Under the pieces are notes generated by a model. The model saw nothing but the letters and a program-made list of their open reading frames with translations, ran no database searches and was not told the DNA's origin. The position numbers were made by a program, and so were the translations under genes. A stretch of 60,324 nucleotides of DNA, the filler included. It is 3 parts of 3 records of this genome, joined end to end, with 100 filler letters (N's around TTAATTAATTAA, not from the genome) between each part and the next. Parts side by side here need not be neighbours in the genome. Positions count along the whole stretch, not along the records: positions 28,620 to 44,285 come from DRR378314_199; 2 more parts are not named here. One strand, 5' to 3'. Shown piece by piece: positions 29,311 to 44,148 of this stretch. Positions within the stretch are counted from its first letter, which is position 1. Every line of letters starts with the position of its first letter.

Positions 29311-30828
29311 GTTTTGGAAAACAAATGCCTCCCATTCCTTAAAACGGCCCTCTCCCATAACTCTTTCCATTTTTACCTGTCCGCCCTTTTTCTTATTGGC
29401 ACCGTTCCAATCCGCGAACATTTGCTGGGGCACAAAATTTACCTTCACCCCTTCCAAAGCTTTGCTTCGGGCAACTTTGTAATTTTTGTTGGCTTCTTTT
29501 AAGTAACTGTCCAGGACGCTGGCCGTTTTTTCTTCGTCCAAATGCTCATCGGAACCCAAATACCACGTATGGTAAAATCCGTCATCAAAACGTTTTGCAC
29601 AAAGTGTATATTCAGGAACCTTAATATTCAGTTCTTCCTCCAAATGTTTTACGGCATCATTCAATTTGTTCACCGAAAGCTGTGACCCCACGGTATTTAA
29701 AAAGAATTTGGTACGTCCCGTGATTTTTATTTCGGCTCGTTCCACATCGGTAAAGGCAATGGTATCTCCAATTATATATCGCCACGCACCGGACACCGTT
29801 GATATTATCAAAACATAATCCACATCTGCTTCAACCTCATCCAAGGTAATGGAGGGTGCATCCTCCGTTAACGAACCATCTTGATTGACATACTCAGGTT
29901 CAAAAGGCACAAACTCAAAATAGATTCCGTTGTCCGTGATAAGTTTCATCGCAGTGGTCTCTGGCCTGTTTTGACAGGCAAAAAATCCTTCGGACGCCAA
30001 ATAGGTATCTATAATTTGAATGGGGCGGCCCAATAGGGCATTGAAGCTTTTCTCGTAAGGGTCAAACGCCACTCCACCCGATGTAAAAGCCCGTAAGTTG
30101 GGCCATATCTCGTGGATATTGTCCACCTTATGATAGTCTATTACTTTCTTGAGCATCAGCTCCATCCAAGAAGGAATGCCGCTCAGGGCGCCAATATCCC
30201 AATTTTTGGCATTCTGTGCTATGGAAAGTACACGCTCGTCCCAATCATCTATTTTTGCGATTTGGTCACCGGGCTTATAGTATTTTTTGAACCAGAAAGG
30301 AATGTTACTGGCACTTATGCCGCTAATTTCACCTTCTTTTTTACCATCGCGCTCCTGCAGATTGGTAGAACTCCCCAACATCATGATTTCTTTCTCAAAA
30401 AAATCGGCGGGCATATCAAAATTGCTCATCGCAAACACCTGTTGCCTTCCAGCTCGGGTAATGGAGTCCAACATATCTCCGGTAACGGGTATTCTTTTGG
30501 GTTTTTTTCCCGTAGTACCCGAAGAAAGAGCAAAGAAATCAGGGCTTCCCGGCCAGACAACGTCAGCTTCGCCTTGAATGGTCTTGCTCCACCATTCATC
30601 GGTTATTTTTTTATAATCGTGGTAGGGTATCGCTTCGGAAAATGCCTTTTGGACATCGTTGGATTTTAAAATGGAATCAAAAACGTATTCTTTTCCAAAT
30701 TGAGTATTCTTTGCCTTGGCCAATAATGTCTCCAAGGTCTTTTTCTGCTCTTCGACCGGACTATTTTCCTTGCTCAGCGCATCCCGAGCTTCGATAACCC
30801 CTTTTATAATGTTTCCTATGATTGCCAT
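29305..30828 (-). CDS. GH3 auxin-responsive-promoter family protein (acyl-adenylate-forming)
   Basis: SSGTTGKKPK, YLASEGFF, YFEFVP, GAWRYIIGD and ITGRT motifs; 507 aa. Confidence 0.9.
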   Translation of the reverse strand: MAIIGNIIKGVIEARDALSKENSPVEEQKKTLETLLAKAKNTQFGKEYVFDSILKSNDVQKAFSEAIPYHDYKKITDEWWSKTIQGEADVVWPGSPDFFALSSGTTGKKPKRIPVTGDMLDSITRAGRQQVFAMSNFDMPADFFEKEIMMLGSSTNLQERDGKKEGEISGISASNIPFWFKKYYKPGDQIAKIDDWDERVLSIAQNAKNWDIGALSGIPSWMELMLKKVIDYHKVDNIHEIWPNLRAFTSGGVAFDPYEKSFNALLGRPIQIIDTYLASEGFFACQNRPETTAMKLITDNGIYFEFVPFEPEYVNQDGSLTEDAPSITLDEVEADVDYVLIISTVSGAWRYIIGDTIAFTDVERAEIKITGRTKFFLNTVGSQLSVNKLNDAVKHLEEELNIKVPEYTLCAKRFDDGFYHTWYLGSDEHLDEEKTASVLDSYLKEANKNYKVARSKALEGVKVNFVPQQMFADWNGANKKKGGQVKMERVMGEGRFKEWEAFVFQNS

Positions 30829-30912
30829 TTATCGGTAATTTATGTGTTTAAATTTACCCTAATAACGCAGGAAAGTTTCACTCAATCCATTTTTAGATTG
30901 ACGTAAATCATC

Positions 30913-31209
30913 TTAAGCATTTACAGCGGCCGATAAAGAAGAGGAATCGGTGAAAACATCTCTGGCAACAGGCTGTTCCAATTTGTTGGCAATTTTGGAA
31001 TAAAGAGGCTCTGGTGTATCCCGATGTATTGAAACATTGCCATTGCCAGGATCGATTTGAACAACGACCAAAGAAAGGTAATCCATAAGGTGTTCGGCTT
31101 CTTTTATGAGTATTCTAACCACCTGAAGCCGGACCGCATATTCTAAATTGATTTTGCGCTCATGGTGCAATGCCCTTTTATCCTTTAGATTTTTCCAGAT
31201 TATTTCCAA
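30913..31209 (-). CDS. Hypothetical protein
   Basis: 98-aa ORF in an AT-rich region; no family recognised. Confidence 0.55.
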   Translation of the reverse strand: MEIIWKNLKDKRALHHERKINLEYAVRLQVVRILIKEAEHLMDYLSLVVVQIDPGNGNVSIHRDTPEPLYSKIANKLEQPVARDVFTDSSSLSAAVNA

Positions 31210-31503
31210 GTCAAAATTTTCAACAAAAATAGCCCAAATAATATTTGTTTTACAATTACGTTACATTTATTTAACATTGAAAACATCTTCCTGCTTTCTT
31301 TGGCCCATCTTATTTCTTGCGAGCTAAGGACACATTATCAACCCGTTAACCCCCAAATCCATTTTTATTGGGTTTTTTTCAACACTTTAGCCGATTCACT
31401 TCTTAATGTTTTCATAAATATGGAAATCAAATAGTTCCATAGGCAAAAAATATCAAACTAACTCTTATATTTAGCCGATTGCGAATAATTTTAAAAACAA
31501 AAA

Positions 31504-31731
31504 ATGACCCACGAATTACTAGAAAAGGCGGAAGAGTTTGAAAAAAGGCCCATGAGCCACATGTCCACCAGCGATAGGGTTAAGGCCTCAAGGGAAGCAA
31601 AAAGCTTGATTCTTTCCATAAACGAGATTTATAAAAAAACCAAGGATTCCAAATTAATGGAAACCATGAAAAACATTACCGCAAAGAAGCGTAAAATAGA
31701 AAAGCGCCTCAAAGGTTCCCCTTTGGTTTAA
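31504..31731 (+). CDS. Small basic helical hypothetical protein
   Basis: 75-aa ORF with an A-rich translation-initiation region typical of Bacteroidota. Confidence 0.65.
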   Translation: MTHELLEKAEEFEKRPMSHMSTSDRVKASREAKSLILSINEIYKKTKDSKLMETMKNITAKKRKIEKRLKGSPLV

Positions 31732-32015
31732 TATACCTTTTGTGGAAGGGTATTGGTGGTTCCCAAACCAATACCCTTCCCAAAAAACTTTTGTTCCCCT
31801 TCCCAAAACCTTTCTAAATTGTTGTTTTTCAGCGAACAACTCAATTTCGCTAAGCACTCTATTACCTGAGAACAATACTTTTTCCATTTACATAACATTT
31901 ATAACCAATTATGTCTTAATTACTGCAACCAATAAAAAACTGGATTGTATTAATGGGTGTTATAGATAATTTAGAGCTATAGTTTTAACTCAACTAAATA
32001 CAAACACTCAGAAAA

Positions 32016-32117
32016 ATGAACACTATGGAAGCAAAGCTAGGGTACCTATTCTGGTACGTTGTAATTGCACTATCCGTTTACGCTCTTTTAAGCAGTATCT
32101 ACCTTTACATTAGTTAA
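32016..32117 (+). CDS. Putative 33-aa single-pass membrane protein (not in ORF track)
   Basis: MNTMEAKLGYLFWYVVIALSVYALLSSIYLYIS*, with an A-rich leader and a downstream terminator. Confidence 0.5.
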   Translation: MNTMEAKLGYLFWYVVIALSVYALLSSIYLYIS

Positions 32118-32170
32118 CTATACTAAACACTAACACAAACCCAATATAGTTAGTAATGTGTCTTTATAGG

Positions 32171-32196
32171 GGGCCCCTGATCAGGTGCCCTTTTTT
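32171..32196 (+). terminator. Intrinsic terminator, possibly bidirectional
   Basis: GGGCCCCT-GATC-AGGTGCCC hairpin (one mismatch) followed by TTTTTT, abutting the pyruvate kinase stop. Confidence 0.6.
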
Positions 32197-33733
32197 AATT
32201 CCAGTTCATTCTCGGTAACAAAACTTCTTTCTTGTAGTGATAATCCTCCACATTTATTAGTACCTCATCCAAAAAAGATATAGCTTCATTTACATGAGGT
32301 CCTTTGTTCAACATTACACATTCAGCTTGAACCGAAGAAGTAATATCGGTTATTTCAGACCTTGAGGGCATGCCCTTCTTTGCAAGACTTTCCAATACTT
32401 GAGTGGCCCAAACCACCGGTATATGGGCTGCACTGCAAAACGATAAAATCCCTTCCTGCACCATTCCCATATTTTTCCAACCCACTTCCAATGCCAGATC
32501 GCCGCGGGCAATCATAATGCCCAAATGCTTGCGCTGCATCGCAGATATTAGAATGCTTATTAAATTCCTGTACGCCAAATTGGTCTCAATTTTCAGAATA
32601 ATGCCCAATTCTTCATCTGCCCCCAATCTTTTCAATTCATACAAGAGGTCGTCAACATCATTTTCATCGTTTACATAAGAGTAATTTACGATGTCCGCAT
32701 GAGCAACCACAAACTTCAAGTCTTCCCGATCTTTGTCCGTAAGCCCAGAAATGCCCAAATCCAAGGTGGGCAGGTTGATTCCCTTTTCTCCTTTTAGTTT
32801 TGCACCGCCAACTTTGGCCCGTGTTATTTTTACCCTAAACGATTCCGAAGCCGTTTCCACAACCTCGCCCTCCATTTTGCCATCATCAAATAAAATGGGC
32901 TCTCCTTTTTTTACACGTTGAATAATTTGAGAAGGTACACAACCAATTGTCGCAGGTTTCACAACGATTCCGTTTTTATCATACTCTGGAAGGGTTGCTC
33001 CATTTTCTCTGTCGGTAACAATAAGGTGGTCCCCTTTATTAAGTGGAATAAATTGTTTTTCTTTCTTTTTTGAAGCTTTGGATCGTTTTCCTTGCACAGT
33101 GAAATCAATGCTACCTGTTCTAACCTTGGACCCTGTTAAATCCATGGCAACTTTGACAGTGGCGGAACATTCTTTAGCTGCTTTGCGCACATTGTCAATT
33201 ATGGCTTTCCAAACATCGGGACCATCATGCGCGCAATTTATTCGAGCACAGTCCATCCCGTTTTTTACCATATGCAACACCATATCGTAATTGGTGGCTG
33301 CCTCGGTGGGCTGCGTGACCATAATCCTGACCCTTCGCGATTTGGTATTGGTCCCAAAAAGTTCATCAGTATGCTTTACAAGTAATTTCGCACCATCACC
33401 AATGCTTAAAAACTCTTTCTTGGAAAGGTCTGGAGCAGCTCCCAATAAGCTGTTAACGATAATTTTGAGATTGATGATACTCCCCAAAATATTACCTTCC
33501 GAATTGGCAAGACGCGTTAAGCCCAATTGCTTTAGACCTTTTTGCATGTTTCGGGCATCAAAACTTCGGAAGGTAGCATAGTGCAATAAATTTTTTGCAC
33601 TTTCCCTATAAACCGGACATACCTCCGCAGGCAAAATACCATCAATAGCCTGTTGCCGTTGAATCAAATTTATGACTTCGTCAATCTGCAAAGCCATTTT
33701 TTGCAACTGTTGCCGTGTAATACCCATACCCAC
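32195..33733 (-). CDS. pyk: Pyruvate kinase, atypical form with N-terminal extension and no C-terminal regulatory domain
   Basis: RIMVT, GMDCARINCAH, MDLTGSKVRTG, FDDGK, KGINLP, LKIET, MIARGDL, WATQVLES, PSRSEITD and CVMLNKG. The protein ends ~35 aa after the barrel. Confidence 0.88.
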   Translation of the reverse strand: MGMGITRQQLQKMALQIDEVINLIQRQQAIDGILPAEVCPVYRESAKNLLHYATFRSFDARNMQKGLKQLGLTRLANSEGNILGSIINLKIIVNSLLGAAPDLSKKEFLSIGDGAKLLVKHTDELFGTNTKSRRVRIMVTQPTEAATNYDMVLHMVKNGMDCARINCAHDGPDVWKAIIDNVRKAAKECSATVKVAMDLTGSKVRTGSIDFTVQGKRSKASKKKEKQFIPLNKGDHLIVTDRENGATLPEYDKNGIVVKPATIGCVPSQIIQRVKKGEPILFDDGKMEGEVVETASESFRVKITRAKVGGAKLKGEKGINLPTLDLGISGLTDKDREDLKFVVAHADIVNYSYVNDENDVDDLLYELKRLGADEELGIILKIETNLAYRNLISILISAMQRKHLGIMIARGDLALEVGWKNMGMVQEGILSFCSAAHIPVVWATQVLESLAKKGMPSRSEITDITSSVQAECVMLNKGPHVNEAISFLDEVLINVEDYHYKKEVLLPRMNWN

Positions 33734-33738
33734 TATTT

Positions 33739-33786
33739 ATGACAAAGATCATAAGTAAATCGTTCAAAAAAACTGACATTGATCAG
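33739..33786. promoter_or_regulatory. Tandem Crp/Fnr-type palindromes upstream of pyk
   Basis: ATGAC-AAAG-ATCAT (33739-33752) and CTGAC-ATTG-ATCAG (33773-33786). Confidence 0.55.
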
Positions 33787-33798
33787 CGTAATGTAACA

Positions 33799-35346
33799 TT
33801 ACCAGACAGATTGCATCTTCTTGATGGATTCAATTACAATGGGAGCCTGCTTATCCTCATTTACAATAATTAAGGTATGGTAAGGGTTTGTTGGGAATAT
33901 CTGTTCTGTCATGGAAAGCATTCCTTGGTCCACAAACAATTCCATGGACGACCAATCCATTAATATTTTGAACTCTTTTACATCTCCCTCTATACCGTTT
34001 AAAGGTGCGACATGCTTTTTGGCTCCAAAATCTTCTTGAAAATCAACTTTTCCGGACAAAGTTCTATCTACAGAAAAAATCTGATTGTCAGAATCCATAG
34101 TCATTACAAACGCCTCATCCAGTTCATTTTTAAACAGTAATTTAAAATTTTTAGCGGCCGTTCTAAGCCGAATCTCTGATTGATTGAGCCCTTCTACCTG
34201 TAAGGTATCCGATGTATTGGCCGCCACCTCAACCTCATTGACCAGTGTTGAATTGGTCAAACCACTTATTTTGTCAATTGGGTAATTTGCCAAAAAGTAA
34301 TCATCCGCAACTTTGTGCAAGGATAATTTTCGGGGCACCGTCATGGCACTTCGCCATTTCTTTGTAGGCGTATCTCGGGCGTAGTCCCAGTTGCTCATCC
34401 ATCCTATAAAAATACGCTCCTCTTCCGGAACATTGTTATAGGTTACTCCTGCGTAATTATCTGTTCCGTAATCAAACCATTTAGGATTCTTTTGATCGGA
34501 AGTAAAAGTTGTACCATCAAAATCTCCCACGAAATATTGAGTCCCACTGCCACCATTTGGGGCTCCGGGGTTAATACTAATGATCAAGACCCATTTTTCC
34601 TCATTGGAACCCTCTACTTTCAAGGGAAAAAGATCCGGACATTCCCACACTCCCCCATGTGCGCCTTGCGATTTACCAAAATCGCTCAAGTATGACCAAT
34701 CCTTTAAGTTTTTGGAACTATAAAATTTGGCATGGTCACCGGCTACCAAGATCAAAATCCAACTGTCAGACGGCTCATGCCAAAATACTTTGGGATCCCT
34801 AAAATCCTTGATGCCATCGTTAAGAATCACAGGGTTGTTCTTATACTTTTTCCAAGTGTCGCCATTGTCCAAACTATAGGCTATCCCCTGAGTTTGAAAA
34901 TCCTTCCTTCCAGCCTTCTCCCCTTCCATGGAATGGTATGTGAAAATGGCCACCAAAGGTGTTTTCCCATTTGCACCAAAACCCGAGGTGTTTTTCTTAT
35001 CCACTACTGCACTCCCGGAAAAAATATAGCCGTGCTCATCAGGGTAAAGTGCAATGGGCCTGTGCTTCCAATGCACCAAGTCCTCACTTACAGCGTGTCC
35101 CCAATGCATGGGGCCCCATACAATATCCTCCGGGTAATATTGGTAAAAAAGATGGTAAACCCCTTGGTTAAAGACCAACCCATTAGGGTCGTTCATCCAT
35201 TTTTCCTTTGGTGAAAAGTGGAATTGCGGACGATACTCCTCCTTGTACCATGATTCCTCTTTCGGTTGATTCGGCACTTCTTCCCTTTTTTCCTTACAAG
35301 AAACAAGTGCAGCCATCACTATGCAACTGATAATTAGTCTAAACAT
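33799..35346 (-). CDS. GH32 beta-fructosidase/levanase, lipoprotein
   Basis: WMNDPNG, WGHAVS, FSGS, RDPKV and WECPD catalytic motifs; lipobox LVSC. Confidence 0.93.
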   Translation of the reverse strand: MFRLIISCIVMAALVSCKEKREEVPNQPKEESWYKEEYRPQFHFSPKEKWMNDPNGLVFNQGVYHLFYQYYPEDIVWGPMHWGHAVSEDLVHWKHRPIALYPDEHGYIFSGSAVVDKKNTSGFGANGKTPLVAIFTYHSMEGEKAGRKDFQTQGIAYSLDNGDTWKKYKNNPVILNDGIKDFRDPKVFWHEPSDSWILILVAGDHAKFYSSKNLKDWSYLSDFGKSQGAHGGVWECPDLFPLKVEGSNEEKWVLIISINPGAPNGGSGTQYFVGDFDGTTFTSDQKNPKWFDYGTDNYAGVTYNNVPEEERIFIGWMSNWDYARDTPTKKWRSAMTVPRKLSLHKVADDYFLANYPIDKISGLTNSTLVNEVEVAANTSDTLQVEGLNQSEIRLRTAAKNFKLLFKNELDEAFVMTMDSDNQIFSVDRTLSGKVDFQEDFGAKKHVAPLNGIEGDVKEFKILMDWSSMELFVDQGMLSMTEQIFPTNPYHTLIIVNEDKQAPIVIESIKKMQSVW

Positions 35347-35550
35347 TACCTTAAGTTAAAATAATCTTTTTCAAGATAAAGAAATTTTATCTCCCACCTT
35401 ACATGCTTCTGAAAACCAAGAAATAATCACTTTGAATGGCAACCAAGGCTACATTCAAAAAAATAATTCCCACATGCTTGAAAGGAATGAAACCAAAAAT
35501 CTACCTATCTTTAAACAACGTTTTGCAAACCCCAACTAAATCTAAATAAG

Positions 35551-36165
35551 TTGAGCAAAAACCTACTTTTAATCCTTACCCGAAACCCCGAACTCGGTAA
35601 ATGCAAGACCCGGTTGGCCGACAAAGTAGGCGACAAATCCGCTTTGGACATCTATAAGTTTTTGCTGGACCACACCGTATCCTTTACCAAAGATCTTAAG
35701 GTTGAAAAATGGGTGTATTATTCCGAAAGCATTTGGGAAAATGACATTTGGGACAACAATGTTTACCAAAAAAAACTTCAGGTAGGAAAGGATTTGGGTG
35801 AACGTATGATGAACGCCTTTAGGGAAGGATTCCAAGCCGGTTTTGAAAATATCATCGTTATTGGTAGCGATATGTTCCACCTAAACCAATCCGATTTGGA
35901 AGAGGCTTTCTCAAAATTTAAAGACCACAACTATGTTGTGGGTCCCGCTGAAGATGGTGGCTACTATCTTTTGGGGATGAAATCCATAAAAACTGAACTG
36001 TTCCAAAATAAAAACTGGGGCACAGATACCGTTCTACAGGATACACTTTCCGATATCAAAAACGAAAAAGTGGCACTAATGGATGAGAAAAATGATGTGG
36101 ATTACTACAAAGACATAAAAGATGTAAAGGCCTTTGCACCATTTTTAAAACATATACAAGAATGA
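35551..36165 (+). CDS. TIGR04282/DUF2064 family transferase (arsenosugar-associated, CofC-like fold)
   Basis: RNPELGKCKTRL, QVGKDLGERM, IGSD, GPAEDGGYYLLG, WGT and DVD motifs. TTG start. Confidence 0.88.
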   Translation: MSKNLLLILTRNPELGKCKTRLADKVGDKSALDIYKFLLDHTVSFTKDLKVEKWVYYSESIWENDIWDNNVYQKKLQVGKDLGERMMNAFREGFQAGFENIIVIGSDMFHLNQSDLEEAFSKFKDHNYVVGPAEDGGYYLLGMKSIKTELFQNKNWGTDTVLQDTLSDIKNEKVALMDEKNDVDYYKDIKDVKAFAPFLKHIQE

Positions 36166-36977
36166 CACAAAAACAGATTGGCGAATCCGTTGAATATTTA
36201 AAAAAGCAAGGTTTTGAAACCCCAGAAATCGGCATTGTGCTCGGCACGGGCCTGGGACAACTTGTGGACAAAATAGAAAATTCCATTGAAGCCCATTACA
36301 ACCACATCCCCTATTTTCCTTTGGCTACTGTGGAATTCCATACCGGCAAATTGATTTATGGGACAATCGAAGGCAAAAAAGCCGTGGTAATGCAAGGGCG
36401 TTTTCATCTGTACGAAGGCTATGATTTTCTCGACATCACCTATCCCATACGGGTTATGCATCAGCTCGGCATAAAAAAACTGTTTGTTTCCAATGCCGCG
36501 GGAGCCATCAACCTCGACTTTAAAAAAGGGGATATTATGTTGATCGAAGATCACATCAACCTTCAAGGAGGTTCTCCCTTAGCTTTTAAAAATGTAGGAG
36601 AGTTTGGCGACCGATTTGTTGATATGAGCGAACCCTACGACCTGGACATGCGCAAAAAATTGGAAGCCATTGCGTTAAGAGAGAATATATCACTTAAAAA
36701 AGGAGTCTATGTTTCGGTAGTTGGCCCCCAACTCGAAACCAAGGCCGAATATAGAATGCTCAAAATTATGGGCGCCGATGCTGTAGGAATGAGTACGGTT
36801 CCCGAAGTAATTGTTGCAAATCATTTACGACTACCCATTGTAGCGGTATCCGTGTTGACCGATGAATGTGATCCAGATAATCTAGAACCCGTTGATGTTC
36901 AGGAGATTATAAAAAAAGCAAAGCAAACGGAGCCAAAAATGATCAAGCTGTTTCAAGAATTAATCAAAGAACTATGA
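36162..36977 (+). CDS. Purine nucleoside phosphorylase, trimeric PNP family
   Basis: IVLGTGLG, QGRFHLYEG, NAAG, DHIN, GPQLETKAE and DAVGMSTVPE. ATGA overlaps with both neighbours. Confidence 0.93.
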   Translation: MTQKQIGESVEYLKKQGFETPEIGIVLGTGLGQLVDKIENSIEAHYNHIPYFPLATVEFHTGKLIYGTIEGKKAVVMQGRFHLYEGYDFLDITYPIRVMHQLGIKKLFVSNAAGAINLDFKKGDIMLIEDHINLQGGSPLAFKNVGEFGDRFVDMSEPYDLDMRKKLEAIALRENISLKKGVYVSVVGPQLETKAEYRMLKIMGADAVGMSTVPEVIVANHLRLPIVAVSVLTDECDPDNLEPVDVQEIIKKAKQTEPKMIKLFQELIKEL

Positions 36978-37939
36978 GCTATTTAGATGCCACCCAAGAC
37001 CTCTATAAAGAGGCCGCCCTAACCCCAGATGTTGGGCTTTGCTGTACCACCAACCCCATTTGGCAATTTCCCGGGCTTTCCATTCCCAAGATTATGCAAG
37101 AAATGAACTATGGCTGTGGCAGCACCGTTTCCGCACAGGATTTGGTGAACAATCCCAAAGTACTTTATGTAGGTGTAGGTGGCGGAATGGAACTGCTTCA
37201 ATTCTCCTATTTTTCCAGACAACAAGGAGGTGTAACAGGAGTGGATTCCGTAGATGAAATGTTGGAGGCTTCCAGAAAAAACTTCAAAATTGCCGAACAA
37301 GAAAACGATTGGTTCAAAAGTGAGTATGTGAACTTGGTCAAAGGTGATGCATTACATCTACCAGTAGAAGATGAAAGTATTGATGTCGCGGCACAAAATT
37401 GCCTCTTCAATATTTTTAAAATAGAGGATTTGAAGAAAGCGGTTTCCGAAATGTACCGTGTTTTAAAGCCGCACGGCAGATTGGTAATGAGCGACCCCAT
37501 TTGCGAGCAGCCTATGAGTGATGAACTCCGTAATGATGATAGACTGAGAGCGCAATGCCTGAGCGGCAGTATTCCGTTGAACGATTATGTAAAAGTGTTG
37601 ACGGATGCTGGCTTTGGCACCATCGAAATTCGCGGGAAACGATCGTACAGGGTATTATCCCCCAACCATTACCCTACCAATGAACTCATCCATATCGAAT
37701 CTATTGAAATTGCAGCTATCAAAGACCCAATGCCAGAGGATGGACCTTGTGTTTTTACAGGTAAAACAGCCATCTATTTTGGCAACGAAGATTATTTTGA
37801 TGACAAAAAAGGACACATGCTACAACAAAACCAACCCCTAGCAGTTTGTGATAAAACAGCAGCAGCCTTGGCAAATGCTTCGAATGAAATTTACATTAGC
37901 GAAAGTACCTACCACTATAATGGTGGCGGATGTTGTTAG
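36974..37939 (+). CDS. arsM: Arsenite S-adenosylmethionine methyltransferase, ArsM-like (arsenosugar-cluster type)
   Basis: Class I SAM fold (YVGVGGG, GVD, GDA, RVLKPHG). ArsM-type cysteines in GLCC, YGCG, NCLFNI and QCLSG, plus C-terminal GGCC. Confidence 0.85.
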   Translation: MSYLDATQDLYKEAALTPDVGLCCTTNPIWQFPGLSIPKIMQEMNYGCGSTVSAQDLVNNPKVLYVGVGGGMELLQFSYFSRQQGGVTGVDSVDEMLEASRKNFKIAEQENDWFKSEYVNLVKGDALHLPVEDESIDVAAQNCLFNIFKIEDLKKAVSEMYRVLKPHGRLVMSDPICEQPMSDELRNDDRLRAQCLSGSIPLNDYVKVLTDAGFGTIEIRGKRSYRVLSPNHYPTNELIHIESIEIAAIKDPMPEDGPCVFTGKTAIYFGNEDYFDDKKGHMLQQNQPLAVCDKTAAALANASNEIYISESTYHYNGGGCC

Positions 37940-37944
37940 GTGAT

Positions 37945-38961
37945 TTATTTAGAAATTGTAGTCTTGGAAGATTCGTAGTCCAACAGAATTCCTTCGGAGA
38001 TCCACTTGGCCAAAGCCTGTCGGTTATCCGGATCTAAAATTCTGCGCTGGTCCTTTTTGTTTCTGATATTGCCGATTTCGATATAGGCCATGGCAGGAAA
38101 CGTATTTTTAACCATGTACAAACTGCTTCGCTCCATAAAAGTACCGTTGTACAATCGGTTGGGCTGAAACTTTTTGTATTTCCTAAAAAATGTCCGGTGA
38201 ATGCTCTCTGCCAGTTTTTTGCCGTTTTTGCTCTTTTCGTGATGGTAGAAAAACACATCGATATTGGTTCCCTCGCTACGGCTGTCCACGTGAGTGACCA
38301 GTAAACGTTGATATTTCCCAGAATTCTTCAGATACAAATCATTTACAGCTTTGGAGCGCTGCTTCAATCGCTCCAACTGACTCAACGGAATAGTATTGGA
38401 CTGCACGGTCTCATCCGTGTCCAATTCCAGCAACCTACTGTCTCGGATTCCATCATTTTCATCCTGAACAATCAAATGTACCTCCGCACCATGTGATACC
38501 AACTCACGGGCCAGCCTAAGGGTTACATCATAAGCATATTCATCTTCAGAAATCAATTTTCCGCGGTACTTTTCCACAGCGCCCGGGTCTGGACCACCGT
38601 GCCCTGAGATTAAATAGTAGACTGTTTTGTCCAAGCGTTTGCTCACGACATCCACCTTTTTAAAATCTTCTCCAAAAATGGGATAGGTAATTCCTTGATC
38701 AATCTCCTCTACTTTTTTGGTTGCCAAAGTATCCGGCAATACATAGGAACGTCCCATAAACAACGATTCATCCTCGCCCAAATCCTCTGCGTTCAACGAT
38801 ACAAATTTATTATAATGTTTTGTTGGGCTCACTCCGTGCCTTCTGAGCAAGGAATAGATACCATCCCCTTCTTGGGCAATAACTTTTGGAAATTCCTCTT
38901 GGGCACAGATTGCACCTTGAAGTAAAATGCTGAGTAAAACGGTAAACTGAAAAGATTTCAT
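37945..38961 (-). CDS. N-acetylmuramoyl-L-alanine amidase (Amidase_3) with LysM-like N-terminal domain
   Basis: Signal peptide from MKSFQF (38961). Zn/catalytic motifs GHGGPDPGA, EDEYAYD, HVD and YIEIGN. Confidence 0.88.
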   Translation of the reverse strand: MKSFQFTVLLSILLQGAICAQEEFPKVIAQEGDGIYSLLRRHGVSPTKHYNKFVSLNAEDLGEDESLFMGRSYVLPDTLATKKVEEIDQGITYPIFGEDFKKVDVVSKRLDKTVYYLISGHGGPDPGAVEKYRGKLISEDEYAYDVTLRLARELVSHGAEVHLIVQDENDGIRDSRLLELDTDETVQSNTIPLSQLERLKQRSKAVNDLYLKNSGKYQRLLVTHVDSRSEGTNIDVFFYHHEKSKNGKKLAESIHRTFFRKYKKFQPNRLYNGTFMERSSLYMVKNTFPAMAYIEIGNIRNKKDQRRILDPDNRQALAKWISEGILLDYESSKTTISK

Positions 38962-38962
38962 T

Positions 38963-39892
38963 TTAATTCTCAAATTCCAGATCAACATAATCATTAATAA
39001 TGCCATTGCTGATCAAGTTGGCAAATTCTTTTTTGTTGGGTTTGAGGGAAATCTTGCTGTCCGATATACTGGAACCGCTTTCAATAGTAAGCAAGCTAAT
39101 GGCCGGCAGCATGTTTCTGGCCAAATACAGACTGTTCTGATCTTCGAAAATCAAGCTGGCTTCATTGGAAGATTTGCTGGAAATACTTTTTTCCTTAAAA
39201 ACATTTTGAAGGTTTTGTGCAAAACGCTGCCCTTGGGTGCTTTTGTTATAGTGATAAACGGCCACATTCAAATTGCCTGAGTTTACAATGTTTTCAGTAC
39301 GGATGAACAATACCCGTTGGTATTTACCCGTGTTCTGCAAGTAACGTTTGTTAACGACCTTTATGTAATCTCCCAACACATCTTTTGTGAATATATCTCC
39401 CCCCAAGTCCGTGGCAATCTCATCACCCATCACATACACTTGGGCTCCGTTCACCATTAGCTCCGCTGCCAATCGTTGGGTGATATCCTTTATAAAGTCT
39501 TTATCTCCTTCGGTACTGTTTTCGGTAATCAAGTAGTAGACAGCATCCTTGAGTTTATTACTTTTTAGCGACATTTGGGCAAGTTCCTTATCAAAAATGG
39601 GTTCCTCCGCATCTTTCTTGGCCTCGACCATCACTCCGGTCTTCTTAAAGGAATCATCAGCATAGGGAACATTATATGCCTCACCTAGTTTTAGCGCGCT
39701 TCCTTTTTTTATCTTGTCCGAATTGAGTTCCAAAAATTCTCCATAGTGTTTAGCAGGATCCAATCCTTGTTTGCGGAGCAGGGAAAAAATACCGTCTCCT
39801 TGTTCTGCAACCACCTTGTAGTAAGTGCTTTCCTGTGCAAAAATGAACGTACAGGCCCAAACCCAAAAAAGAAGGGATAATCGTGATTTCAT
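38963..39892 (-). CDS. Catalytically degenerate amidase paralogue
   Basis: Collinear with the adjacent amidase (VVAEQGDGIFSLLRK, PIF, VYYLI, KYQR, SLY..N..PA), but Zn-ligand motifs are missing. Confidence 0.75.
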   Translation of the reverse strand: MKSRLSLLFWVWACTFIFAQESTYYKVVAEQGDGIFSLLRKQGLDPAKHYGEFLELNSDKIKKGSALKLGEAYNVPYADDSFKKTGVMVEAKKDAEEPIFDKELAQMSLKSNKLKDAVYYLITENSTEGDKDFIKDITQRLAAELMVNGAQVYVMGDEIATDLGGDIFTKDVLGDYIKVVNKRYLQNTGKYQRVLFIRTENIVNSGNLNVAVYHYNKSTQGQRFAQNLQNVFKEKSISSKSSNEASLIFEDQNSLYLARNMLPAISLLTIESGSSISDSKISLKPNKKEFANLISNGIINDYVDLEFEN

Positions 39893-39987
39893 TATTGTAT
39901 GTCTTTGGGTGGGATGTGTTGCAAATATGGCAAAAAAACACGTAGCTCGGTTACGAATTAGCCCAAAATTTCGGACAAATTAATTTA

Positions 39988-41007
39988 TTAATCCTGAAGA
40001 CTGGATTGCTTTACATTTGCAAACTGTCTTCGGATTACAGATTCGGCAGGTTTGTTTTGGGGCGTAAAGCGGTTGTCCTCGTGCCCCCCTACCTGATCGT
40101 GCTGCATAAACCACTTCCAAACAAAGCCGCCCGCAAACCAATCCTCATTCCAAAATTCATCAAAGATTACCTGCGTGGCGTCGGCTTGGGCCTGAAGATT
40201 AACATTCATTTGGTTTCGGTCGACCAACCAAGGTTTTTTGCCGGCAAAGTCCATACTTCGGTACCCAAACTCCGTAAAAAGAATAGGTTTATCTTCTTGT
40301 TTGGATAGTTCCCTCATTTCAGTTTTCCAAGGTTGCCATCCCTCGGTAAGTGTTTGAATGGTTGGATTTTCTTTTTCGCACAATGGGAAGTAGGCGTTCA
40401 CCCCAATATAATCCAATTGCGACCAAAACGGTGTTTTGGCATATTCATCCCAGTTGGCAGCATAGGTAAGTTCACCGTGGTACACCTTTTTTACTTTTTG
40501 GATAAGGCTGTTCCAAAACTCAGGTCGCTCGTTTACGAAGGTTTTCAACTCCGTTCCAATACAAAACATATCGCTCTGGGTTTCCTCGGCCAGTGCTGCA
40601 TATAGTAGTATAAATTGTTCGTACGCTACTTCCAGTTGCTTCCAATCCTTTTCCGTTGGCATCTTCATGTTTCCTGTAAACTCACCTCTATGGATCCAGA
40701 TTTGGGGCTTTACCATCACGCTCACCCCATTTTGATGCATTTTTTGGATGTATTGCCTGGCTCCTTCCCTTCTCTCCCCATACCATTGGTGGTCCGAATC
40801 AAAAACCAATTCGGGCGAATCCAAATCGCGGATAAAGCCAAAAGGCATAATGGCCGCATAATTGGCCTGAATATCCAGAACAGGGGTAATATGATGTTGA
40901 GCCACTTCTTCCCGGGACGAGACAAAACTGACACCATTGACTTTGGCTAACTTGCCACTACCGCAAGAGGCAAAAATAAAGACCCATAATAGAACTACTT
41001 TCTTCAT
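39988..41007 (-). CDS. GH113-like TIM-barrel glycoside hydrolase, lipoprotein
   Basis: Lipobox FASC; KPQIW, GTEL (acid/base), TYAANWD, AYFPL, TEFGY (nucleophile) and GGFVWKW. Confidence 0.8.
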   Translation of the reverse strand: MKKVVLLWVFIFASCGSGKLAKVNGVSFVSSREEVAQHHITPVLDIQANYAAIMPFGFIRDLDSPELVFDSDHQWYGERREGARQYIQKMHQNGVSVMVKPQIWIHRGEFTGNMKMPTEKDWKQLEVAYEQFILLYAALAEETQSDMFCIGTELKTFVNERPEFWNSLIQKVKKVYHGELTYAANWDEYAKTPFWSQLDYIGVNAYFPLCEKENPTIQTLTEGWQPWKTEMRELSKQEDKPILFTEFGYRSMDFAGKKPWLVDRNQMNVNLQAQADATQVIFDEFWNEDWFAGGFVWKWFMQHDQVGGHEDNRFTPQNKPAESVIRRQFANVKQSSLQD

Positions 41008-41135
41008 AATAATTGTGGAACCCTCTAAAATAATAATTTTAAAGCATCATTTAGCTGCCAAATTCTTATTAAATTCCATTTCACTGTTAAGTTCTTTCCA
41101 TAAAACTCGACATATAAAACAATCAAAGCCAACCC

Positions 41136-42485
41136 ATGGAACATATTGTCATCATTGGAAATGGAATAGCCGGAATTACCGCTGCTAGGCATATCCGGAA
41201 ACTTTCCGATAAAAAAATCACCGTTGTTTCGGTCGAAAGCAAGTATTTCTTTTCAAGAACCGCTTTAATGTACGTGTACATGGGGCACATGAAATTTGAG
41301 CATACTCAACCCTACGAAAACCACTTTTGGAAGAAAAACAGAATTGAATTGGTAGAGGGCTATGTTTCGCATGTAAATACTCAAGAAAAAATTATTCAAA
41401 TTGATGGAGCACCAGACCTTAATTATGACAAACTCGTTATAGCTACGGGGTCCAAACCCAATAAATTTGGATGGCCCGGTCAAGATTTAGATGGGGTCCA
41501 AGGACTCTACTCCAAACAAGACTTGGAACTTTTAGAAGAAAACGCCCCCAACAATAAGGTCTGCAAACGCGCTGTAATTGTGGGCGGCGGTTTAATCGGC
41601 ATCGAATTGGCCGAAATGCTTCGCACTCGCAACATTCCTGTTACTTTTTTGGTTCGAGAGGACAGTTTTTGGAACGGCGTCTTACCCAAAGGCGAATCAG
41701 AAATGATCAACGAACATATTCGGGAACACCATATTGACCTGCGTTTGGGTGCTTCGCTCAAAGAAATCAACTCAGATGAACACGGAAAAGTAAAATCCGT
41801 GACGCTTGCCGAAACGGGTGAACAAATTGAATGTAATCTGGTGGGCTTGACGGCTGGCGTTACTCCAAATATTGATTTCCTCAAAGATTCGGGCATTGAA
41901 TTGGGCCGTGGTGTTAAAGTAAATCGATTTTTGGAGACCAATGTTAAAGATGTTTTTGCTATCGGTGATTGTGCCGAGCAGCATGAAGCCATTGGGAATC
42001 GCAGACCTATTGAAGCCGTATGGTACACAGGCCGGATGATGGGAGAAACCCTTGCCCAGACCATTTGTGACAACCGAATGGAATACAAACCCGGACACTG
42101 GTTTAACTCAGCCAAATTTCTGGATATCGAATACCAAACCTATGGTTGGGTATTTTCAGAAAAAAGAAAAAAAGAAACGGAAACCCATTTTCATTGGCGA
42201 CATCCCAAACAAAAAATCTGTATCACCCTAGCGTTTGATAAAGATTCCGAAACACTCTTGGGCATCAATACCTTTGGCATTCGTTTACGACACGAGGTTT
42301 TTGACCGTTGGCTCAACGAAAAAAGAAATGTCGATTATGTAATGGAGCATCTCGTAGATGCCAATTTTGACCCTGAATTTTATAAAAATTTTGAAGCGCA
42401 GATCGTATCCAAATACAATTCCGATTTTGGAAAATCCATCAAACTGAAAAAGAAAAACCTAAAACGCATCTTCCAATTGGGTTGA
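41136..42485 (+). CDS. NAD(P)/FAD-dependent oxidoreductase (ferredoxin/rubredoxin reductase-like)
   Basis: GNGIAG FAD motif, ATGS, GGGLIGIE NAD motif and FAIGDCA. Confidence 0.9.
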   Translation: MEHIVIIGNGIAGITAARHIRKLSDKKITVVSVESKYFFSRTALMYVYMGHMKFEHTQPYENHFWKKNRIELVEGYVSHVNTQEKIIQIDGAPDLNYDKLVIATGSKPNKFGWPGQDLDGVQGLYSKQDLELLEENAPNNKVCKRAVIVGGGLIGIELAEMLRTRNIPVTFLVREDSFWNGVLPKGESEMINEHIREHHIDLRLGASLKEINSDEHGKVKSVTLAETGEQIECNLVGLTAGVTPNIDFLKDSGIELGRGVKVNRFLETNVKDVFAIGDCAEQHEAIGNRRPIEAVWYTGRMMGETLAQTICDNRMEYKPGHWFNSAKFLDIEYQTYGWVFSEKRKKETETHFHWRHPKQKICITLAFDKDSETLLGINTFGIRLRHEVFDRWLNEKRNVDYVMEHLVDANFDPEFYKNFEAQIVSKYNSDFGKSIKLKKKNLKRIFQLG

Positions 42486-42537
42486 TTAGTTTACGTTTTA
42501 ATAAAAAGTTTAAATCAGAACAAAGGAACAACAAACA

Positions 42538-44148
42538 ATGAACAACCAAACACATAGTCCAAGTATGGCCCTAACCGGGGAACCACCAAAAAGTTTGAGC
42601 ATCGGTCAAAAAATCGCTGTGTTTTTAGGAATGTCCGGTCTTGGCATTCTATTATTGGCCGTTTTCAATGTCGGTTTTCCAAACAAAGTTTTGTGGCTGA
42701 CCCTATCATTATCAATCATTGCCATTGGCGTTGTTTGGTTTTCCTGGGGTGCCTATTCGAGCAAACTTCCAGGTATAAAAAACGATGGGGTTTGGTTTAA
42801 ATCCATTTCCAGCCGCGGTTTATGGGGCTGGATGGCAGGTCTTGCACTCACAGGCTTTTACATTGTGCTCTACTTTTATCCTGAATATCTAGGTTTGGTC
42901 AGCGATGGAGATAACAAAGGAGTAATCGGCCTTTTTGATCCCCTTAGCATATTCTTGAACGGCAATCCAGCAAGCCAGTGGTTTGTTTACGGCACGCTCT
43001 ATACCGTGGCCATTTTGATTTTTGGCATCAAGTTCCTTTGGAAATACCGTCATAATCGATACGAAAAACTGCGCACATGGAGCGTGATGTTCTTTCAAAC
43101 CGCTTTTGCGTTCATCATTCCAGAACTGATGGCCCGTTTGAACGGTCACAAGATTTTGGACGGTGGTAGCCTCCCTTATTTTGATCTGAAAAATATTTGG
43201 CCGCTCAACTATTATAATTTTGAGGGGTACCGTATCAAAATGTTCTTAACCTCCGGGGAAATTGGGTTTGCACTATTGATTTTTGCCATTCTTTCCATTT
43301 TTGTGATAACTCCCATACTCACATACAAATACGGTAAAAGATGGTATTGTTCTTGGGTTTGCGGTTGTGGTGGACTTGCCGAAACCGCTGGTGATTCGTT
43401 TAGGCAATTGAGTGATAAATCTACCAAAGCATGGAAAATTGAGCGTTGGGTGGTGCATAGCGTGGTAGTTTTTGTGACCTTGATGACCACAGCGGTCATC
43501 TATTCCTATTTGGGGACTGATACCAGCAAATACTGGCTGACGAAAAGCTCTTTTTTGATCGGCGTAGGCGTTTTGTTGACCTTAGTGTTTGCTTGGGTGA
43601 TGATTTTTAAAAGAAATCAGCTTCAAAAAGATGCACAATACGGAGCCATCGGATATTTTGTGATTATAATTGCGTTGATCGGATTCCACTTTTTTAGTGG
43701 TGAAGGAGAAGTTTTTCTCTTCAAATCTGGAACGCTTCGTAAATCGTACTCTTTTTTGATTGGCAGTATTTTCTCTGGAGTCATCGGAACCGGGTTCTAT
43801 CCCATATTTGGTAGCAGGGTTTGGTGCAGATTCGGTTGTCCTATGGCTGCTATCCTAGGTTTTCAACAGAAATTGTTTTCCAGATTTAGAATAACCACCA
43901 ACGGCGGACAATGCATTTCTTGCGGAAACTGCTCAACGTACTGCGAAATGGGCATTGATGTGCGTGCCTACGCGCAAAAAGGTGAAAACATCGTAAGGTC
44001 CAGTTGCGTCGGTTGCGGTATCTGCTCAGCAGTCTGCCCTAGAGGTGTCCTTAAATTGGAAAATGGACCTTTGGAAGGTAGAATTGACAGCAATCAGGTG
44101 CTTTTGGGCAATGATGTGGATTTGATGACCCTCGTAAACAAGAAGTAA
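42538..44148 (+). CDS. Polytopic membrane 4Fe-4S protein (NapH/MauN/RdxA-like)
   Basis: Many TM helices, CSWVCGCG and CRFGCP motifs, and ferredoxin motifs CISCGNCSTYC and CVGCGICSAVCP. Confidence 0.88.
   Translation: MNNQTHSPSMALTGEPPKSLSIGQKIAVFLGMSGLGILLLAVFNVGFPNKVLWLTLSLSIIAIGVVWFSWGAYSSKLPGIKNDGVWFKSISSRGLWGWMAGLALTGFYIVLYFYPEYLGLVSDGDNKGVIGLFDPLSIFLNGNPASQWFVYGTLYTVAILIFGIKFLWKYRHNRYEKLRTWSVMFFQTAFAFIIPELMARLNGHKILDGGSLPYFDLKNIWPLNYYNFEGYRIKMFLTSGEIGFALLIFAILSIFVITPILTYKYGKRWYCSWVCGCGGLAETAGDSFRQLSDKSTKAWKIERWVVHSVVVFVTLMTTAVIYSYLGTDTSKYWLTKSSFLIGVGVLLTLVFAWVMIFKRNQLQKDAQYGAIGYFVIIIALIGFHFFSGEGEVFLFKSGTLRKSYSFLIGSIFSGVIGTGFYPIFGSRVWCRFGCPMAAILGFQQKLFSRFRITTNGGQCISCGNCSTYCEMGIDVRAYAQKGENIVRSSCVGCGICSAVCPRGVLKLENGPLEGRIDSNQVLLGNDVDLMTLVNKK

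Follow-up and report, generated by a model that had tools for sequence, protein, structure and literature searches.

A TIGR04282, nucleoside phosphorylase and ArsM gene trio of a marine flavobacterium as part of a known arsenosugar-type gene set, with a possible role of the phosphorylase in DDMAA cleavage

Organization of the locus

The window, i.e., the whole stretch of DNA that was analyzed (60,324 nucleotides), consists of three contigs joined via N44-TTAATTAATTAA-N44 linkers, with runs of N at 28520-28619 and 44286-44385. Only the contig at 28620-44285 (about 15.7 kb, GC 41%) is flavobacterial, the flanking contigs having a GC content of 51-59%, and the source of the three genes considered here (hereafter, the trio) is a marine flavobacterium. 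The closest genome is that of Muricauda sp. NFXS6, with an ArsM identity of 99%. The trio and its upstream surroundings comprise the following features:

33799-35346, minus strand: GH32-like gene, divergent neighbour of the trio
35347-35550, plus strand: intergenic region of 204 bp, situated upstream of the trio and divergent from the GH32-like gene, where the promoter presumably lies (ORF list)
35551-36165, plus strand: TIGR04282/DUF2064 protein, 204 aa, TTG start, CofC/MobA-like fold (TIGR04282, 210.5 bits, cut-off 134)
36162-36977, plus strand: trimeric-type (PunA-like) nucleoside phosphorylase (PNP), 271 aa, ATGA overlap on either side (NF006054, 345.1 bits, cut-off 218)
36974-37939, plus strand: arsenite S-adenosylmethionine methyltransferase (ArsM), "arsenosugar" subtype, 321 aa (NF038099, 569.3 bits, cut-off 400)

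The three ORFs (ORF list) share one strand, and since the letters ATGA are read in the sequence at both junctions (36162-36165 and 36974-36977), the stop of each trio gene overlaps the start of the next; an earlier note on this DNA had described three genes coupled in this way, and both the ORFs and the two ATGA sites agree with it. Across the whole contig no Rfam match was obtained at E<=0.1, riboswitches and other RNAs upstream of the trio included. A sigma-70-type promoter scan, which does not cover Bacteroidota promoters, returned sites at or below the level of shuffled sequence, and a terminator scan gave nothing exceeding the shuffled level.

The protein families named in the same note were confirmed, each above curated cut-offs. 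The TIGR04282 match spans model positions 1-189 of 189 (NCBIfam), and the TTG start is backed by relatives with Met at the equivalent position. The protein has a conserved N-terminal G-x-x-K-T-R-L motif and a DGGYYL motif, and in Pfam it matches PF09837 (DUF2064; 102.5 bits) and, weakly, PF01983 (CofC; 25.2 bits). Both its nearest solved structure, the DUF2064 protein 3cgx (profile E 4e-66), and the CofC/FbiD guanylyltransferase 6bwg (profile E 1e-4) match it; however, 3cgx, named "putative nucleotide-diphospho-sugar transferase", carries no assigned function, and the CofC/FbiD score falls short of the family cut-off (TIGR03552, 31.6 bits vs. 105). The NCBIfam name, "arsenosugar biosynthesis glycosyltransferase", denotes a predicted activity. 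Most of the 120 listed long homologues are fusions of TIGR04282 with TIGR04283, a GT2 protein, and the two proteins therefore act together; the two long open frames that were fetched (L100, L123) are both such fusions.

The ArsM protein matches NF038099 (AsSugarArsM, "arsenosugar biosynthesis ArsM") over its full length and carries class I methyltransferase domains in Pfam. The three As(III)-binding cysteines of the solved algal enzyme (Cys72, Cys174 and Cys224; chains 4fr0/4kw7) have aligned counterparts in its Cys48, Cys143 and Cys195, and it is a putative As(III) methyltransferase. Each of three related genomes has a single NF038099 copy above cut-off.

Relation to known arsenic gene sets

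The earlier note had pointed out that the contig is devoid of arsR, arsC and acr3, and none of arsR, arsC and acr3/arsB was present among the contig genes scanned, so that the regulator, reductase and efflux pump expected beside the methyltransferase in an ars resistance operon are missing. While true of the contig, this says little about the organism, since the contig is about 15.7 kb long and Acr3 scores above cut-off on a separate contig of Muricauda sp. NFXS6; Acr3 was not found in two other related genomes. The ArsS gene is likewise absent from the 15.7-kb contig. The same note expected arsS in genomes bearing the trio, and had set its lack beforehand as an argument against its own reading: ArsS (TIGR04167) was found in all three related genomes searched (442-444 bits, cut-off 300), Muricauda sp. 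NFXS6 among them, as was TIGR04283 (215-239 bits, cut-off 182).

Of 80 ArsM-centred genome loci, 5 have ArsS immediately upstream of the trio, as do many metagenome loci, and 66 have TIGR04283 on the locus. Some relatives possess a nine-gene cluster (annotated in L079), the order of the fuller set being peroxidase-like TIGR04169, ArsS, rhodanese NF045521, TIGR04282, PNP, ArsM, sometimes a PHO4 transporter, DUF547 and TIGR04283. NCBIfam attaches the name "arsenosugar biosynthesis" to TIGR04282, TIGR04283, TIGR04167, TIGR04169 and NF038099, a set neighboured by the rhodanese NF045521; two of the three trio genes match it above cut-off, and its remaining members were found in the relatives of the trio. 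Because NCBIfam already labels two of the three genes in this way, the arsenosugar reading is not new. The set holds, however, no nucleoside phosphorylase model, and the PNP of the trio is annotated as an ordinary purine nucleoside phosphorylase. Given the family matches, and since relatives encode ArsS and TIGR04283, the trio is best explained as a fragment of a flavobacterial ArsS-dependent arsenosugar gene set rather than of an ars resistance cassette, in line with the earlier note, which preferred a biosynthetic or salvage module to a detox cassette.

We know of no report of arsenosugar production by Flavobacteriaceae, nor of a product for any flavobacterium. The better known counterpart is the cyanobacterial pathway of Synechocystis, formed by ArsM and the radical-SAM enzyme ArsS, with Xue et al. 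2019 and Cheng et al. 2021 as primary papers. The ArsS reaction of that pathway is described in PMC13598754. An ArsM-type methyltransferase is common to both systems, ArsS is found in the relatives of the trio, and DDMAA is the expected intermediate in either case. The flavobacterial cluster nevertheless adds TIGR04282, PNP, DUF547 and TIGR04283, the relatives further carry the rhodanese and an AhpD-like protein, and in the flavobacterium ArsS is not adjacent to ArsM. A protein search with ArsS returned, among the 120 matches listed, only close flavobacterial relatives.

Linkage of the phosphorylase to TIGR04282

Of the 80 ArsM-centred loci taken from species genomes, 77 show the order TIGR04282-PNP-ArsM and three end at a contig edge just upstream; the arrangement of the trio is not due to chance. 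In the metagenome sample of 80 loci, PNP adjoins TIGR04282 in 49; of the 48 loci in which both flanks extend for at least 1 kb, 35 show the adjacency. Metagenome loci were kept only at >=40% identity to the TIGR04282 of the window, which leaves phyla outside Bacteroidota hardly covered: a GC of >=0.46 is reached in only 4 assessable loci, and PNP was present in none of these four. The adjacency is kept across at least six gene orders:

TIGR04282-PNP-ArsM
TIGR04282-PNP-TIGR04283
ArsS-ArsM-(rhodanese)-TIGR04282-PNP
ArsS-PNP-TIGR04282-TIGR04283 (L217, L243)
TIGR04282-PNP-TIGR04283-peroxidase-ArsS-ArsM (L237)
PNP and TIGR04282 divergent (L213, L225)

In a further order PNP is divergent from the cluster start (G086). 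The TIGR04282-PNP pair is intact where ArsM has moved (L169, L170, L185, L187). A PNP-centred, and hence unbiased, search of 381 genomes yielded 25 genomes with a linked-clade PNP (>=413 bits), which lies in the cluster in 17 of them. The PNP is the new element of the trio, with a linkage to TIGR04282 that persists through rearrangements.

Specificity residues of the phosphorylase

The trio's PNP belongs to PNP_UDP_1 in Pfam and also exceeds the cut-off of TIGR01697 (300.7 bits vs. 197.1). Canonical trimeric PNPs are its solved relatives, 45 PDB sequences matching it at E<=1e-20 and human PNP at 1e-66. Residue positions were related to those of human PNP by aligning the protein with chain 4ear (numbering offset 35). 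Those of the phosphate and ribose sites (equivalents of H64, R84, H86, Y88, A116, G118, F159, Y192, M219 and S220) are invariant among the 183 PNPs tabulated, so that these contacts are the same as in canonical PNPs (human and calf PNP, bacterial PunA), and Glu201 is kept as well. The trio's PNP differs from them in having Asp234, Val246 and Leu191 in place of Asn243, His257 and Phe200. Its score against TIGR01700, the inosine/guanosine-specific PNP I, is barely over the cut-off (307.4 bits vs. 293.35), and the two determinants of that type, Asn243 for the 6-oxopurine and His257 as ligand of the 5'-OH, are missing. In the residue table all 135 TIGR04282-linked PNPs carry Asp and Ile/Val at these two positions.

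In human PNP, the double mutant Glu201Gln:Asn243Asp cleaves adenosine analogues (PMC2799393), and His257 binds O5' in PNP, whereas a hydrophobic pocket devoid of hydrogen-bond partners is credited for the preference of MTAP for 5'-substituted nucleosides (PMC5147791). The replacement of Asn243 by Asp, of His257 by Val and of Phe200 by Leu makes strict 6-oxopurine specificity and 5'-OH recognition unexpected in the trio's PNP. The MTAP of methionine salvage shares with it the PNP_UDP_1 fold and the trimeric-type family, has Asp at the base-recognition position and lacks a hydrogen-bonding residue in the 5' pocket (PMC5147791). The trio's PNP is nonetheless not a member of that family (TIGR01694, 104.2 bits vs. 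a cut-off of 274.85), being of PunA type by sequence with Glu201 retained, and its resemblance to MTAP is confined to two specificity positions.

A possible route to ribose-linked arsenicals

What is observed is the identity of the genes, their linkage, the residues and, in relatives, ArsS and TIGR04283. From these a five-step route can be proposed, in which we infer the chemistry after ArsM and take the ArsS reaction from the literature. ArsM would convert As(III) to dimethylarsenite, to which ArsS, encoded elsewhere in the genome, would add the 5'-deoxyadenosyl group of SAM, yielding DDMAA. With phosphate, the PNP would then split DDMAA into adenine and 5-deoxy-5-dimethylarsinoyl-alpha-D-ribose-1-phosphate, as MTAP does with methylthioadenosine, in a reaction of the general form 5'-substituted adenosine plus phosphate to adenine plus 5-substituted ribose-1-phosphate; the step is proposed because Asn243 is replaced by an Asp that would accept adenine, and His257, the ligand of the 5'-OH, by a hydrophobic Val. 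TIGR04282, with its nucleotidyltransferase-like fold, may activate the arsenic sugar phosphate, and TIGR04283, as an inverting GT2 enzyme, may pass the sugar to an acceptor to form a beta-riboside. PNPs yield the alpha-1-phosphate and GT2 enzymes act with inversion; a PNP followed by such an enzyme fits the configuration of arsenosugars, which are beta-ribosides.

Arsenosugars are the main arsenic species of seaweeds and a major dietary organoarsenical, and to our knowledge enzymes are assigned only for the steps up to DDMAA (ArsM and ArsS). In the literature searched, the adenine-removing step was met solely as a hypothetical "adenosyl nucleosidase" (PMC10456119). A phosphorylase kept beside TIGR04282 through rearrangements provides a concrete candidate enzyme and a reaction order, and such a step, if true, would also account for the beta-configuration of the products. 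We tentatively favour the reading of the trio as part of the known gene set with the PNP as candidate for DDMAA cleavage, and consider the PNP a good, if unproven, candidate for the adenine-removing step. More doubtful is the broader proposal that marine Flavobacteriaceae, beyond algae and cyanobacteria, make ribose-linked arsenicals through phosphorolysis by a His257-less PNP, nucleotidyl activation by TIGR04282 and inverting transfer by TIGR04283, an unlinked PNP of the same type acting in trans where the linkage is missing. Were heterotrophic flavobacteria to make arsenosugars, the assumed sources of these compounds in the sea would widen.

Is the phosphorylase dedicated to the cluster?

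The PNP could instead be a housekeeping purine, adenosine or 5'-deoxyadenosine phosphorylase with no arsenical substrate, co-located for co-regulation or for the clearance of by-products, such as 5'-deoxyadenosine from abortive ArsS turnover or adenosine from the S-adenosylhomocysteine made by ArsM. We regard this as possible, though we would not expect it, and in that case the finding would shrink to the gene set already annotated. It is favoured by the gene complement of the nearest genomes, where the trio's PNP is the sole PunA-type PNP (nearest genome) and no PF01048 gene of MTAP or MtnN type was found; the PF01048 genes are limited to the trio-type PNP, a DeoD and a Udp-like protein in one genome (G001), and to the trio-type PNP and a second match of equal size and score, without annotation, in another (G003). 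A PunA-type PNP is moreover near universal in the phylum sample (above cut-off in 374 of 401 genomes, vs. 244 of 401 for TIGR04282), and it is missing from the clusters that we call type A. In 21 of the 30 best TIGR04282 loci of that sample the order is (ArsS)-TIGR04282-TIGR04283, with PNP neither between nor beside, and no phosphorylase or nucleosidase was present among the 10 flanking ORFs scanned in four metagenome clusters of this order. Two further points speak against DDMAA cleavage by the PNP: by hand count, 35 of 246 TIGR04282-positive genomes are without a PNP in the His-less score range, and Glu201 is kept, whereas the adenosine-cleaving human mutant changes this residue too (PMC2799393).

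The residue type does not follow the cluster either. One idea was that PNPs lacking the His, called type 2, are restricted to genomes with TIGR04282. It was rejected, as all 10 PNPs that were fetched from genomes negative for TIGR04282, chosen within the intermediate score band, were of type 2, with Leu, Asp and a hydrophobic residue at the three specificity positions. The surroundings of unlinked copies are of the housekeeping kind (YggS-DivIVA). Equally, the exclusive clade of linked PNPs seen in a TIGR04282-centred tree was abandoned when the PNP-centred search placed unlinked members inside it, from both TIGR04282-negative (G314, G362, G114, G198) and TIGR04282-positive genomes (G174, G218, G202); the PNP is therefore retained without the cluster. 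The trio's PNP is not a dedicated paralogue, and it is most likely the general 5'-substituted adenosine phosphorylase of its lineage, recruited into the operon and not exclusive to the arsenosugar pathway.

What a purely housekeeping role explains less well is the linkage itself, since the PNP stays with TIGR04282 in six or more gene orders and across deeply branching parts of its tree, more than drift usually keeps. A scavenger would be expected beside ArsS or ArsM rather than always beside TIGR04282, and the TIGR04282-PNP pair stays together though ArsM has moved.

Ten candidate columns for residues separating linked from unlinked PNPs mark the core clade only, deep-branching linked PNPs keeping the ancestral letters, and the SPLAF loop is likewise a marker of the core clade only. 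A TIGR04282-PNP fusion of the Rosetta-stone kind was discarded, as it occurs in 1 of the 120 long homologues listed, on one contig, and looks like an in-frame deletion of about 97 N-terminal PNP residues. A complex prediction for PNP and TIGR04282 (score 0.00, without controls) speaks neither for nor against an interaction.

Other functions of the cluster

The cluster may serve another 5'-deoxyribosyl conjugate or another metalloid, the NCBIfam names over-reaching in these bacteria. The ArsS/TIGR04282/TIGR04283 set was originally described as "rSAM/selenodomain-associated", and JGI names the fusions "rSAM/selenodomain-associated transferase 1/2"; TIGR04282 is of model type "hypoth_equivalog" in NCBIfam, and neither for it nor for TIGR04283 was a transferase activity reported in the literature searched. 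We nevertheless hold this reading to be improbable, for the cluster includes a dedicated ArsM whose As(III)-binding cysteines are intact, its ArsS lies far over the cut-off of a family containing a characterised enzyme, and some clusters hold a PHO4-type phosphate/arsenate-like transporter.

Production of arsenite by arsenolysis, the PNP forming ribose-1-arsenate from a nucleoside and arsenate for reduction by thiols and so standing in for ArsC, draws on the absence of arsC from the contig and on human literature that treated PNP as a candidate arsenate reductase (PMC1257606). It seems very improbable, as the rhodanese-fold protein usual in the clusters could perform arsenate reduction, and both the pairing with TIGR04282 and the loss of His257 would be left unexplained. 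The arsenolysis route has, besides, been judged an in vitro phenomenon.

Another reading, a salvage option already raised in the earlier note, is that the trio serves to degrade or salvage arsenosugars or arsenonucleosides of algae, imported compounds resembling DDMAA being the substrates of the PNP. It fits the alga-associated lifestyle suggested by the glycoside hydrolases (GH32-like, GH113) neighbouring the trio on the contig, yet it is hardly to be expected where the biosynthetic ArsS and ArsM share the cluster in relatives and these hydrolases are kept with the trio only among close relatives.

The arsenosugar operon and its surroundings

On the middle contig, the three ORFs and their two ATGA overlaps match the earlier note's description exactly, as judged from the ORF list and the sequence:

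35551-36165, + strand: TIGR04282/DUF2064 protein (210.5 bits vs. a curated cut-off of 134)
36162-36977, + strand: PunA-type purine nucleoside phosphorylase, PNP (NF006054, 345.1 vs. 218 bits; TIGR01697, 300.7 vs. 197.1 bits)
36974-37939, + strand: NF038099 'arsenosugar biosynthesis arsenite methyltransferase ArsM' (569.3 bits vs. a cut-off of 400)

NCBIfam labels both TIGR04282 and TIGR04283 'arsenosugar biosynthesis glycosyltransferase', the radical-SAM family TIGR04167 'ArsS', TIGR04169 'arsenosugar biosynthesis-associated peroxidase-like protein' and NF038099 'arsenosugar biosynthesis ArsM'. For two of the three genes, the proposal of a biosynthetic module instead of a detox cassette therefore coincides with the existing annotation; reading TIGR04282 and ArsM as arsenosugar genes was right, yet already contained in these names. 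The window ArsM keeps three cysteines, aligned to Cys72, Cys174 and Cys224, the As(III)-binding cysteines of a solved algal enzyme.

Two N runs (28520-28619 and 44286-44385, each N44-TTAATTAATTAA-N44) join the three contigs, whose GC content is, in order, 51-60%, 39-43% and 51-59%, and remarks on 'the contig' are valid for 28620-44285 alone. This middle contig falls in Muricauda/Flagellimonas, nearest to Muricauda sp. NFXS6 (ArsM identity 99%), and no arsenic gene was found among its genes outside the trio, whose products are GH3/OlsH-like and pyruvate-kinase-like proteins, GH32-like and GH113 hydrolases, an amidase, a NapH-like ferredoxin and a flavoprotein disulfide reductase. In the first contig (1-28519) long ORFs are very scarce (longest 496 aa), three ORFs tested against Pfam gave no match, and its DNA may be something other than ordinary bacterial coding sequence. 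The third (44386-60324) is bacterial, without relation to the trio, and encodes a GntR regulator, a DapA-like lyase, an aldehyde dehydrogenase, an MttB-family methyltransferase, a 671-aa RTX-repeat protein and a Usp-domain protein.

Conservation of the PNP beside TIGR04282

The species-genome sample comprised 80 ArsM-centred loci (ArsM identity 80-99%), all taxonomically labelled ones being Flavobacteriaceae or Bacteroidota MAGs. The order TIGR04282-PNP-ArsM was found in 77 of them, a contig end truncating the other three; TIGR04283 also lies downstream in 66/80, mostly behind a DUF547 gene, and ArsS directly upstream in 5/80. The fullest cluster (L079) reads TIGR04169, ArsS, rhodanese NF045521, TIGR04282, PNP, ArsM, PHO4-family transporter, DUF547, TIGR04283. 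In some clusters such a transporter, for phosphate or possibly arsenate, lies between ArsM and DUF547 (11123-12226 in L079, about 10617 in L180).

Scanning metagenomes with a TIGR04282 alignment gave 80 loci, 49 of which have a PNP within 1.5 kb of TIGR04282 (35 of the 48 with 1 kb or more on either side). The pair is kept as TIGR04282-PNP-TIGR04283 (L169), TIGR04282-PNP-DUF547-TIGR04283 (L170, L173, L179), ArsS-ArsM-(rhodanese)-TIGR04282-PNP (L185, L187, L192), ArsS-PNP-TIGR04282-TIGR04283 (L217, L243) and TIGR04282-PNP-TIGR04283-peroxidase-ArsS-ArsM (L237); PNP and TIGR04282 are divergent in L213 and L225, and in genome G086 the PNP and the gene that opens the cluster are divergent. That the pair outlasts these rearrangements is the chief argument for a functional tie, with TIGR04282 as the partner.

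An arsS homologue, whose absence from trio-bearing genomes would in the earlier note speak against a role in arsenosugar metabolism, is present in all three related genomes searched (442-444 bits, cut-off 300), as is TIGR04283 (215-239 bits, cut-off 182). TIGR04283 is a short way downstream of ArsM in Flagellimonas sp. S174 and in Maribacter halichondriae. In Muricauda sp. NFXS6 both ArsS and TIGR04283 are on contigs other than the trio's. In this closest genome DUF547 and TIGR04283 are gone from the ArsM operon and stand in that order at L125 7995-11568 (- strand), adjoining deoC and deoD, the latter for a DeoD-type, adenosine-accepting PNP. Acr3 is encoded elsewhere in the NFXS6 genome and was not found in a search of the two other related genomes.

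Predicted activity and place in the pathway

Ten residues, the equivalents of His64, Arg84, His86, Tyr88, Ala116, Gly118, Phe159, Tyr192, Met219 and Ser220, are the same in each of the 183 PNPs compared, and the window PNP should therefore be an active phosphorylase. Aligned to human PNP (chain 4ear, offset 35), its Leu191, Glu192, Asp234 and Val246 correspond to Phe200, Glu201, Asn243 and residue 257. Human PNP carrying Asn243Asp and Glu201Gln cleaves adenosine analogues (PMC2799393); His257 binds O5' in the human enzyme, and the preference of MTAP for 5'-deoxy/5'-substituted nucleosides is put down to a hydrophobic pocket that offers no H-bond partner (both in PMC5147791). Judged by Asp234 and Val246, the window PNP is therefore predicted to take adenine nucleosides as substrates and to tolerate a 5' group other than hydroxyl, features common to 5'-deoxy-5'-dimethylarsinoyl-adenosine (DDMAA), MTA and 5'-deoxyadenosine. 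By sequence it is no member of MTAP (104 bits vs. a cut-off of 275). No MTAP- or MtnN-type alternative was found in the nearest genomes, of which G001 has a window-type PNP, one DeoD and one Udp-like protein, and G003 a window-type PNP and an unannotated PF01048 match of about 292 aa, whose length and score resemble those of the Udp-like gene. Asp stands at position 243 and Leu at 257 also in two bacterial PNPs of solved structure (PDB 4lna and 4m1e), so models of the 5' pocket can draw on existing structures of this His-less type; to our knowledge neither protein has been functionally characterised.

The earlier note had the PNP split DDMAA into adenine and arsenoribose-1-phosphate, with a CofC-like protein activating or transferring the sugar. 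In such a pathway ArsM would supply dimethylarsenite and ArsS would convert it to DDMAA, a reaction described in PMC13598754. We infer all steps beyond ArsS: the PNP would free adenine and leave the alpha-1-phosphate of 5-deoxy-5-dimethylarsinoyl-ribose, TIGR04282 would activate this to an NDP-sugar, and TIGR04283, as an inverting GT2 enzyme, would form the beta-riboside. Such a route would fit the stereochemistry: PNPs give alpha products, GT2 enzymes are inverting, and arsenosugars have the beta-ribofuranoside form.

In the open-access articles searched, no paper was found that names the enzyme for removing adenine or for forming the glycoside; a review takes up a hypothetical 'adenosyl nucleosidase' (PMC10456119), and two genome papers only cite the NCBI names (PMC13077682, PMC8801600). 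The PNP idea is new within this scope, given which it may have been published before. Its comparative support is real and its chemical logic clear; clear signs that the enzyme is not specific to this pathway weaken it, and it merits a bench test.

Is the PNP a dedicated enzyme?

By those signs the PNP is not dedicated to the pathway. Tentatively, we favour a general 5'-substituted-adenosine phosphorylase that some Flavobacteriaceae have recruited to the operon and that perhaps acts in trans elsewhere. In the phylum sample of 401 genomes, a PunA-type PNP exceeds the cut-off in 374 and TIGR04282 in 244. At the 30 best TIGR04282 loci of this sample a PNP is adjacent in seven, (ArsS)-TIGR04282-TIGR04283 occurs without it in 21 and TIGR04282 is alone in two; no phosphorylase or nucleosidase was found among 10 ORFs flanking four PNP-less metagenome clusters.

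PNPs that keep Phe200 and His257 ('type 1') were the best-scoring ones in 10/10 TIGR04282-negative genomes first checked, and are a second copy in some cluster-bearing genomes. 'Type 2' PNPs have Leu at 200 and a hydrophobic residue at 257; their confinement to TIGR04282-positive genomes was ruled out by ten further PNPs from negative genomes, all type 2. By a hand count with a fuzzy boundary and kinship uncontrolled, a PNP whose score falls in the range of type 2 occurs in 211/246 TIGR04282-positive and 87/155 negative genomes. Unlinked type 2 genes have a conserved context of their own (YggS, small ORF, DivIVA-domain, PNP).

A first tree placed 24/24 linked PNPs, i.e., those encoded beside TIGR04282 or the cluster, in one clade (SH-aLRT 99), separate from 25 unlinked type 2 sequences. 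A linked-clade profile, run as a PNP-centred search over 381 genomes (threshold 413 bits), yielded 25 genomes, with the PNP in the cluster in 17, unlinked in a TIGR04282-positive genome in four (G218, G174, G202, G020) and in a genome without TIGR04282 in four (G314, G362, G114, G198). A new tree put the unlinked PNPs inside the linked clade, except that of G020, which is sister to it, ruling out an exclusive clade; thus the enzyme is kept where the cluster is absent. A purely housekeeping role, or the clearance of a by-product, is a somewhat less probable rival reading; this retention speaks for it, and the persistence of the pair through rearrangement against it.

Residue columns dividing linked from unlinked PNPs were likewise rejected, as they mark only the core clade, the window's PNP included; notable among them is the GGSPLAF loop (residues 136-142, window 36567-36587) just before the Phe159 equivalent. 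Other PNPs have NPLRG instead, the ancestral form, which deep-branching linked PNPs keep.

In G020 the unlinked PNP is about 2 kb from a TIGR04283-like gene (L257 3020-6600, 43% identity), with TIGR04282 on another contig. The TIGR04282-negative G362 and G114 carry tandem duplicate linked-clade PNPs (L249 3007-4700 and L250 3045-4750), with Asp at the human-243 position in one copy, Asn in the other, and Leu at 257 in both.

Structural relatives and fusions of TIGR04282

The closest solved relative of TIGR04282 is 3cgx, an uncharacterised 'putative nucleotide-diphospho-sugar transferase', followed by the guanylyltransferase CofC (E 1e-4). Most of the 120 long TIGR04282 homologues listed, which come from many phyla, carry a GT2 domain and are TIGR04282-TIGR04283 fusions. 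One TIGR04282-PNP fusion is among the 120; its PNP part lacks the first ~97 residues, and we read it as a deletion or assembly artefact. A 546-aa TIGR04282 + GT2 fusion (P0018) is annotated to the nemertean Lineus longissimus on a 21-Mb contig, and may represent an animal with the transferase pair or a contaminated record. One of the 120 listed (P0043, 778 aa) is a triple fusion of GT2 (TIGR04283-like), TIGR04282 and radical-SAM ArsS, which links both transferases with ArsS within a single polypeptide.
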